Source of the DNA: an uncultured archaeon
Lineage (GTDB): Archaea > Iainarchaeota > Iainarchaeia > Iainarchaeales > GCA-2688035
Reading direction: 5' to 3'
Assembly (NCBI GenBank): GCA_964354805.1
Contig: CAYHBD010000042.1
Span: 18,038-82,037, forward strand
DNA length: 64,000 bases
The notes beneath the pieces were generated by a model, which saw only the letters and a list, made by a program, of their open reading frames with translations, ran no database searches and was not told the origin of the DNA. Below are positions 48,072-48,752 of the stretch, one piece after another. Numbering within the stretch: the stretch's first letter is position 1; each line of letters begins with the position of its first letter. The position numbers and the translations under genes were made by a program.

Positions 48072-48752
48072 GGCGGTTCACTTTAGAAAGATTAATAAAC
48101 AATAAAATCTAAGTTAAATATTATGAGAAAAAACCTAATATCAATTATTTTTGTAGTATTCATTGCTACTCTAATTTCTTCATCAGTTTTTGCTTCACAA
48201 GCCCTGCCTAGGTATAGGATAAATGAACAAACAAAAGAGTGCTCTGAATTTTTCATGGGTGATGAATGTGTATCCTGCAATATACCAGAGGGCTGGGAAA
48301 CAATTGAAGAATTTCAATGCCCGAATGGGTATAATGAAATTCAGGCGGATTCAGTATGCATGCCCAGAAAAGATCCTTTTTGTTGTACTGTTCAACATTC
48401 AGGAGCAGCTGGAGATTGTGAAGATGTTGTTGTAAATGACATTGAGCAAAAATGTGCCTTTGTTGAGGATATAAACAAATGTGCTAAATTACCAACAAAT
48501 TGGAAGCAAGCTGAAGATGTAATCGAATTCTGGGGAAAAGTATGCCCATCATTGGAATATGAATGGTTAGAAGAAACATTGGATTGTGAGACAAAAATAA
48601 TTGATAATGATAATATTGATAACCAGAACAATATAGCTGGTGACAACCAACAAAACCCAAACACTCTTCTATTCATAATTGGTGCAGTAGCCATAATTAT
48701 TTTAATTATAATAATCTGGTTTTTTCTCAGAAAAAGATTAAAGTGAACCGCC
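48072..48752. mobile_element. ~680-bp AT-rich single-gene cassette bounded by perfect 14-bp terminal inverted repeats
   Basis: GGCGGTTCACTTTA at 48072..48085 is the exact reverse complement of TAAAGTGAACCGCC at 48739..48752. Imperfect similarity continues about 15 nt outward. No transposase is present. Confidence 0.5.
48123..48746 (+). CDS. Cys-rich secreted protein with a C-terminal TM anchor, hypothetical
   Basis: The signal is IIFVVFIATLISSSVFA. There are more than ten Cys residues, an Asn/Asp-rich linker, and the TM LLFIIGAVAIIILIIIIWFFL. The GC content looks clearly lower than in flanking genes. Confidence 0.6.
   Translation: MRKNLISIIFVVFIATLISSSVFASQALPRYRINEQTKECSEFFMGDECVSCNIPEGWETIEEFQCPNGYNEIQADSVCMPRKDPFCCTVQHSGAAGDCEDVVVNDIEQKCAFVEDINKCAKLPTNWKQAEDVIEFWGKVCPSLEYEWLEETLDCETKIIDNDNIDNQNNIAGDNQQNPNTLLFIIGAVAIIILIIIIWFFLRKRLK

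Follow-up and report, generated by a model that had tools for sequence, protein, structure and literature searches.

A low-G+C single-gene unit in a DPANN archaeal genome: a likely orphan cassette of an integron-like, Xer-type system

Introduction

Integrons are the textbook system of gene capture. Their reach into Archaea was reported only in 2022, when integrons in Archaea, attC clusters without an integrase and cross-domain cassette compatibility were published (Ghaly et al., 2022, Sci Adv, PMC9668308). The archaeal integrons of that report have an IntI with the additional domain and canonical attC sites (PMC9668308). In this study, we analysed a stretch of 64,000 nucleotides (hereafter the window) from an uncultured archaeon of the DPANN (Diapherotrites, Parvarchaeota, Aenigmarchaeota, Nanoarchaeota and Nanohaloarchaeota) group (contig CAYHBD010000042.1, positions 18,038 to 82,037). 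The subject is a short unit at about 48072-48752 of the window, in which one gene for a Cys-rich protein is enclosed by inverted repeats (IRs). The original prediction, made from the letters of the window, read this unit as a non-autonomous element resembling a miniature inverted-repeat transposable element (MITE) with a passenger gene. The analysis reported here favours another reading, in which the unit is likely a gene cassette of an integron-like, Xer-type system that was acquired horizontally and is now an orphan; relatives of the cassette stand in arrays in bacteria of the Candidate Phyla Radiation (CPR, Patescibacteria) type.

Results

The locus and its features

The host is archaeal, as indicated by intron-bearing tRNA genes, TFIIB and an ATP-dependent ligase. 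The interval that holds the unit is bordered by a conserved gene of 90 aa (47184-47456) and, from 50669 on, by the DNA ligase gene. Its features are listed below.

48053..48060, plus strand: left terminus GTTAGGCG; core-site-like, fits GTTRRRY; corresponds to R' at the cassette starts in related arrays
48063..48071, plus strand: conserved left motif, ATATTACTT here and ATATTACTC in relatives; repeats the right motif (RTATKAC) imperfectly and in inverted orientation
48072..48085, plus strand: left arm of the 14-bp perfect IR, the inner stem of the cassette ends
48086..48122, plus strand: AT-rich conserved upstream region with many invariant columns in the homologue alignment
48086-48099, plus strand: sequence like a B recognition element (BRE) and TATA box, GAAAGATTAATAAA; 3' end 23 nt before the ATG; position read from the sequence
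48121..48135, plus strand: second nested arm TTATGAGAAAAAACC, which covers the start codon and pairs with 48718-48732
48123..48746, plus strand: passenger gene, 207 aa, the only convincing open reading frame (ORF) between the arms
48139..48154, plus strand: third nested arm TATCAATTATTTTTGT, in perfect pairing with 48591-48606; the same pair is found in locus L017
48591..48606, plus strand: partner of the third nested arm
48718..48732, plus strand: partner of the second nested arm; encodes the C-terminal WFFL(R/I)K
48739..48752, plus strand: right arm of the 14-bp perfect IR, overlapping the stop codon
48753..48766, plus strand: right motif TGCGTCATAC, then GCCT; CGCCT (48762-48766) complements AGGCG of the left terminus
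48769..48810, plus strand: 3' module GCTCCTCAC ... ACGTTGCACTTTCG, which recurs in the 3' parts of further cassettes, among them an unrelated one of 72 aa in L017
48835..48841, plus strand: ACTTAAC, candidate inverse core (fits RYYYAAC) and possible right terminus; uncertain, by analogy with L017 cassette 5

The perfect 14-bp terminal inverted repeats of the original prediction are present, with GGCGGTTCACTTTA on the left (48072-48085) and the exact reverse complement of it on the right (48739-48752), and the TGA stop codon (48744-48746) falls inside the right arm, as had been claimed. The imperfect similarity said to extend outward was also found: AGGCG (48056-48060) faces CGCCT (48762-48766), and ATATTAC faces GTCATAC. 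The cassette ends are imperfect inverted repeats of about 33 bp that include the perfect 14-bp repeat. GTTAGGC (48053-48059) fits GTTRRRY, DNA homology with loci L008, L031 and L017 starts there, and the left terminus of L031 is the identical GTTAGGCGACATATTACT. The L037/L038 exchange junction described below maps to the GTT that corresponds to this one. From the alignment, the true left end of the unit is placed at 48053 (GTTAGGCG), 19 bp outside the repeat previously taken as the terminus. On the right, BLAST-level homology with other cassettes ends at 48763/48764. The candidate core ACTTAAC (48835-48841) sits 77 nt past this end, within the palindrome GAACTTAA-CAGCGA-TTAAGTCC (48833-48854), and no attC-like fold was found 3' of it. 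The cassette would accordingly span 48053 to about 48764 (some 710 bp), possibly to 48841. GAAAGATTAATAAA is probably the cassette's own promoter.

The low G+C content, at first judged by eye, held when it was computed in windows. It is 0.336 for 48072-48752, compared with a mean of 0.44 (standard deviation 0.034) for 681-bp windows of the genome, which places the segment at the 0.56th percentile. G+C at third codon positions is 0.25 in the cassette gene vs 0.41 in a paralogue of the same genome. Perfect inverted repeats of at least 14 bp with a spacing of 200-1000 bp number 18 in the 1.38-Mb genome and 8-18 in Markov shuffles; taken alone, the 14-bp repeat is not beyond chance because these counts are similar. 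It is judged real because both arms are kept in homologous units elsewhere.

The 207-aa passenger has a signal-peptide-like hydrophobic N-terminal helix, 12 Cys residues and a C-terminal transmembrane helix, in keeping with the single gene first described, and is predicted to be a secreted, Cys-rich, membrane-anchored protein. All 12 Cys are invariant among 22 homologues. Pfam and PHROG searches gave no family at cut-off, the AlphaFold2 model (pLDDT 73.6) gave no fold match with Foldseek against the PDB, and a contig look-up for exact copies of the window protein gave no match.

An antisense ORF of 122 codons (48392-48760, minus strand) starts at the conserved GTCATAC, read as GTATGAC, with a Shine-Dalgarno-like GTGAGGAG 10 nt upstream; its ATG is kept in the homologues. 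It was treated as non-coding; its length varies from about 40 to 122 codons among the homologues.

Conservation of the unit and pairing of its ends

Close homologues of the passenger are 61-75% identical and lie on contigs with wholly different neighbours. In 10 homologous loci both flanks are kept, near-identical base by base, and read (G/A)TTnnnnn-ATATTACTC-GGCGGTTCACTTT on the left and AAAGTGAACCGCC-TGCGTCATAC on the right. By BLAST, DNA homology to L008, L009, L014, L012, L031 and L017 runs from 48054 to 48763/4 at 76-83% identity and stops abruptly. All 10 homologues with both ends intact carry the left motif; in the L017 array, an unrelated cassette of 81 aa has it too. The homologous ORF, the GTT core, ATATTACTY, the inner stems and TGYGTCATAC are all present in the window unit, as in the cassette family of the CPR Xer-type arrays. 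The left end is 83-92% identical to the window compared with 54-73% at third codon positions of the ORF; therefore, the non-coding ends are under selection. In the protein tree, the end-bearing copies, the window protein among them, and four copies with decayed ends form one clade (support 98/97), apart from a syntenic archaeal type.

When the three helices were scored across the 10 homologues, 92.8% of cells were paired, vs 44-55% in controls slid by 1-3 columns. For the 14-bp helix alone the figure is 91%; L008 shows one double compensatory change, and L017 has three G-T (G-U) wobbles that retain the pairing. The second helix is 97% paired and the third 91%.

Long-range 5'-3' pairing might instead act in the mRNA, as a control on how the message is translated or how stable it is; the gene would then be an ordinary accessory one, and its untranslated regions would account for the conserved flanks. 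The near-complete pairing of the second helix, which joins the start codon to the C-terminal codons, the conservation of all three helices and the L017 inner stem, whose three wobbles are G-U on the sense strand, would suit such a role. The left 14-bp arm, however, lies upstream of the BRE/TATA-like box and is probably untranscribed; if GAAAGATTAATAAA is the promoter, this arm is outside the transcript, which argues against a role in the mRNA. Sense G-U and antisense-type C-A departures are equal, with 4 cells each. Unrelated cassettes place the repeat relative to the recombination cores and not to start codons, and the array context and the sharp homology boundaries described here would be left unexplained. 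Control through the mRNA is thus an improbable account of the repeats.

Arrays of related cassettes in bacteria

In five bacterial genomes of the CPR/Patescibacteria type, the unit is one cassette among unrelated single-gene cassettes in an array. The locus L017/L069, from a single-cell genome labelled Patescibacteria, runs from uvrC through a divergent 270-aa tyrosine recombinase to at least six unrelated small ORFs in one orientation. These ORFs are separated by 70-200-nt modules of the form ..ATAAC-A-CGGTATATG..loop..CATATACCG-AAAC-GTTAT... In the loci L009/L015/L029, lepA is followed by the same recombinase and, beyond an inserted transposase of IS481-like type, by an equivalent array. L037, L038, L014 and L031 are fragments of further arrays with the same inter-ORF modules. 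The recombinase stands at the start of the array in the two arrays with a visible start.

The modules fold as imperfect hairpins (z = -3.0 to -5.4), in which ..AAC pairs with GTT.. and the inner box pairs across a bulge. Integron attC sites have this layout. A covariance model, R1, was built from 14 array modules. It recovers held-out sites and the sites of other arrays, and in the five bacterial genomes with the gene it detects 2-11 sites per genome. R1 replaced a crude regular-expression finder of attC-like sites, which was dropped as non-specific (1225 matches vs 1033 in a shuffled genome).

The exchange point can be read from a pair of array fragments. In L037 and L038, the cassette and the downstream site are identical over 859/859 nt to the right of GTTGTACG and over only 7 nt to the left of it. 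Therefore, the exchange point lies at the GTT core, as in integrons. As read from the two sequences, this junction indicates site-specific recombination and not transposition.

Inverted repeats around the ORF are not confined to the window family. In the unrelated 81-aa cassette of L017, the ends follow the same grammar but the stem sequence is another (GTTAGATGA-AATATTACTC-GTCGCTTAAATTT ... AAATTTAAGCGA-TTGTGTCATACA-TCACATAAC), and in the other L017 and L009 cassettes the ORF is bracketed by its own 11-33-bp inverted repeats. Start/end complementarity was scored with the shared five terminal bases excluded. Cognate ends gave 8.5-25 vs 8.5 +/- 1.6 for non-cognate ends (Mann-Whitney p = 1.2e-6, 10 independent cassettes). 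The 14-bp repeat is therefore the inner stem of a general architecture that conserves pairing and not sequence. In such arrays, ORF-flanking inverted repeats are a general trait of the cassettes, conserved in structure.

Three further observations were made in the arrays. A 200-nt module is found in two copies, 98% identical, at L069 3059-3258 and 6345-6544 (L017 2293-2492 and 5579-5778), one between the recombinase gene and the first cassette and the other inside the array; R1 matches both, and the module is possibly an attI-like or duplicated docking region. The hairpin loops of L069, L070, L009, L037, L014 and L031 have YCRCCCAAAT (CCCAAAT or CCCATAT) in common, about equally far from the 3' box, which suggests a sequence-specific element in the otherwise 'variable' loop. 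The inserted transposase (L009 2518-3756, L015 3511-4749) is a 412-aa protein of IS481/IS3-like (rve) type, located between the recombinase gene and the first cassette, at the expected place of attI.

The array recombinase and the nature of the sites

With the NCBIfam model NF040815 (XerA / "integron integrase"), the 270-aa array recombinase passes the cut-off; with TIGR02249 it does not. Its alignment with Thermoplasma XerA is continuous. The alignment with VchIntIA breaks into two parts, and about 45 residues are absent between them (chain positions 200-244), which on our reading correspond to the IntI-specific additional domain. That insertion in IntI reads the extrahelical bases of a folded attC.

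These traits open a serious alternative, in which the cassette ends would be double-stranded, dif-like Xer sites and the window unit a Xer-dependent module or integrative mobile element exploiting Xer (IMEX), inserted by the host XerA at a dif-like pseudo-site without any folded attC. A Xer/XerA-like recombinase that lacks the IntI insertion is what this account would expect, the cassette cores ..CATAA(C)/(G)TTATG.. resemble Xer arms, and one XerA homologue is found in the archaeal genome. Both junctions of the solitary archaeal copy L012 (left, CACATAA-CAAAGA-TTATACG; right, CGTATAA-CAAGCA-TTAGTTT) can be read as a pair of arms around a 6-bp spacer, and the window palindrome GAACTTAA-CAGCGA-TTAAGTCC (48833-48854) could be read in the same manner; the solitary archaeal copies also lack hairpin sites. 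The array half-sites, by contrast, are 50-190 nt apart, with a hairpin between them, and not 6-8 bp apart, and the left junction of the window has no convincing arm-spacer-arm site. The short-motif readings were made by eye, after the fact and without statistics. On balance, we think insertion at a double-stranded dif-like site unlikely.

Distribution across Bacteria and Archaea

TFIIB is present in four of the genomes (G000, G064, G065 and G067, those of the window, L012, L019 and L022). It is absent, and several sigma-70 genes are found, in G061, G062, G063, G066 and G068, the genomes of L017, L014, the L009-type locus, L020 and L023. The bacterial hosts carry arrays. The archaeal hosts carry solitary copies, with no R1 match in three of them and one in the fourth. 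The window protein groups with that of L019, which has an archaeal host (support 98/96), and the archaeal L012 protein groups with copies from bacterial arrays. The different placement of L019 and L012 in the tree suggests more than one crossing between the domains.

The GenBank titles of the bins that hold L014, L018, L021, L019 and L023 ("Gammaproteobacteria", "Methanosarcinales") conflict with their content. The content points to CPR-type bacteria, with genomes of about 1 Mb and integron-like arrays, and to small archaea.

The solitary copy in the archaeal genome

The interval between the 90-aa gene and the ligase gene is empty or holds other genes in 19 relatives of the same family, none of which has the passenger gene there. 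The interval (47184-50669) is a variable spot in the family. Relatives have nothing, a membrane protein or a rubrerythrin with redox genes; the window has a Zn-ribbon gene, the cassette, a rubrerythrin, a 151-aa membrane protein and a ParDE-type toxin-antitoxin pair (50077-50586). A paralogue of the passenger (52% identical) in the same genome has a host-like G+C of 0.46, lies between RNase Z and Lon as in the family relatives, and is without repeats.

The 14-mer has no second occurrence in the 1.38-Mb assembly, even with one mismatch allowed; the check for further inverted copies that was proposed with the original prediction thus found none. The pair of end motifs is likewise unique in the assembly; there is no second unit with such ends and no array. 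Both flanks gave noise only when compared with the whole genome by BLAST and are therefore not a repeat family. Searches of Rfam (gathering thresholds for the whole window; E-value mode for 46700-49000) found nothing in or beside the unit except a tRNA at 46900-46986; therefore, the flanks are not a split known RNA gene. A scan for sigma-70 promoters and terminators showed no excess over shuffles.

No attC-like match of R1 was found in the own genome at E <= 1; the best in the window is 47985-48061 (7.9 bits, E = 3.4). Tested as attC, the window flanks fold no better than shuffles, with their ends unpaired. A giant attC at 47838-48064, between the Zn-ribbon gene and the cassette, was tried and discarded (ends unpaired, z = -1.7 and 0.1). 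No tyrosine recombinase is found near the cassette, and the sole Xer homologue, XerA (37% identity, 327-aa ORF), is on contig C45. R1 sites are absent from 22 family relatives, and 1-3 weak sites were found in 3 of 38 relatives of the order.

These three genomes of the same order and other families (G036, G034 and G053; loci L072-L075) have 1-3 R1 matches each, at 31-40 bits, which could reflect either small arrays of DPANN archaea or CPR contigs placed in the wrong bin. An inverted repeat of 20 nt and 85% identity (47560-47849) also encloses the adjacent 54-aa zinc-ribbon gene (47616-47780; Pfam zf_Tbcl_2). The left arm of this repeat starts ATTATAT.. and the right arm ends ..TTTTATAAC (ATAAC), like the cassette cores, the gene is missing from the same interval in relatives, and fold tests found no supporting hairpin site. 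The gene could be a second cassette that has decayed; alternatively, the repeat could be no more than the AT-rich promoter and terminator of the gene. In the archaeal assembly itself (G000), the small contig C49 matches Sigma70_r2 weakly at 1422-1631 (27.5 bits, marginally over the Pfam cut-off); it may be a contaminant contig, or the gene may have been transferred.

A transposon origin was weighed with these results. In that account, the unit would be a non-autonomous transposon with terminal inverted repeats and a captured passenger, mobilised in trans by a transposase. The imperfect terminal repeats of about 33 bp, the homologues in many unrelated contexts and the IS481-like rve transposase directly upstream of the copy in L009/L015 speak for it. 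Yet the unit is single-copy in the genome and carries a conserved 207-aa gene with a promoter-like sequence, and the L009 transposase, which is beyond the limits of the conserved unit, is found at no other locus. No cognate transposase was seen. There is no target-site duplication at either candidate boundary: the left flank AAGCGCTA shares no exact direct repeat with the right flank, CTCCGCTC after 48764 or AGCGATTA after 48841. Hairpin-site arrays, a tyrosine recombinase and exchange at the GTT core fit site-specific recombination. The transposon origin is largely refuted and, in our judgement, very improbable. What stands of the original prediction is a discrete, foreign, single-gene mobile cassette with inverted repeats; the MITE or transposon part does not stand for a complete gene in single copy with neither target-site duplication nor transposase.

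Discussion

The window unit is likely an orphan, horizontally acquired gene cassette of an integron-like, Xer-type system. As proposed, the cassette would be self-contained, with a promoter-like region, a gene and two imperfect-IR ends of about 33 bp, each composed of a GTT../..AAC core, an RTATKAC motif and the 14-bp stem. The recombinase would move cassettes by site-specific exchange at the GTT core, and the repeats would either pair the two ends of a cassette in single-stranded DNA or offer two copies of one protein-binding site; end pairing would bring the two recombination sites together. The window copy would have come from a CPR-type array into a DPANN archaeon. We infer horizontal acquisition because the G+C is about 3 standard deviations below the mean, a second, native paralogue is present and the interval is variable. 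The copy is now probably stranded, because it is alone, has no attC-like site on either side and has no array-type recombinase nearby.

Several points weigh against this account. Within the family, the pairing comes mostly from sequence invariance, and only 4 pairs changed on both sides; because G-T-type and C-A-type departures are equally frequent (4 cells each), neither the strand nor the nucleic acid, DNA or RNA, is singled out. The right end is unclean: the expected inverse core CGCCTAAC, the mirror of the left core as in short-form relatives, reads CGCCTCCG, and the alternative core ACTTAAC matches the left core at only 5/7 positions. The array recombinase lacks a domain held to be essential for attC recombination, and its action on the array sites is put forward from sequence. 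The host assignments of most relatives rest on metagenome bins. No base-level empty site was found, the closest relatives, which belong to another genus, carry other genes in the interval, and a local assembly chimera at the locus is formally possible.

A wider picture may be drawn, in which CPR bacteria would run a second, as yet undescribed kind of integron with an insert-less Xer/XerA-like recombinase and self-expressing cassettes that have long IRs of their own, through which their ends pair. These cassettes would cross into DPANN archaea that share the habitat and land there as solitary copies without attC. The passenger, originally a gene for a DPANN surface protein in the native order RNase Z - X - Lon, would have been taken up as a cassette, become widespread in the arrays of CPR bacteria and re-entered archaea on two or more occasions. 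This picture as a whole is tentative, and we would sooner doubt it than assert it.

The locus ties one cassette base for base between the arrays of ultra-small CPR bacteria and the chromosomes of DPANN archaea, which are likewise ultra-small, and makes gene flow traceable across domains between groups that share habitats and lifestyles. Three features fall outside the classical integron model, namely ORF-flanking repeats that would pair the ends, a recombinase without the IntI insertion, and cassettes that appear to have their own promoter. They yield predictions on cassette recognition and excision, and perhaps on an origin of integrons from Xer/dif. A literature search found no paper on integron-like arrays in Patescibacteria.

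To our knowledge, cassette-specific IRs that flank the ORF are not a feature of classical integrons. The unit resembles integron cassettes in being a single-gene unit with a left core of the GTTRRRY type and a candidate right core of the RYYYAAC type (PMC9668308). Its relatives, like cassettes in integrons, are stacked one way in arrays with folded imperfect palindromes between them and a divergent tyrosine recombinase adjoining, and the same cassette is found in Bacteria and Archaea, as for archaeal integron cassettes. Unlike in integrons, the array recombinase is without the IntI-specific additional domain, each array cassette has its own specific IRs around the ORF, and the cassette appears, from the upstream sequence, to carry its own promoter; the window copy is without an attC hairpin, an array or a nearby integrase. 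The pdif modules of Acinetobacter plasmids and IMEX (PMC6449649) are small gene modules with inverted recombinase-binding sites and a Xer-type enzyme outside the module, a build that the cassettes may share; the ..ATAA/TTAT.. arms are alike, and some junctions look like two arms around a 6-bp spacer. The array half-sites differ from both in being split by long hairpins and not by a 6-bp spacer. Unlike for pdif modules, the hosts are CPR bacteria and DPANN archaea, the sites are chromosomal and the dependence on Xer is putative. As with MITEs, the unit is short, has terminal inverted repeats and has no recombinase of its own; unlike MITEs, it is single-copy, has no target-site duplication and holds a complete gene, and its relatives recombine at a fixed core in arrays. 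Set against these known systems, what is new would be an orphan cassette of a CPR-type array system in a DPANN chromosome, the end-pairing repeat architecture, and a passenger family with an archaeal native form.

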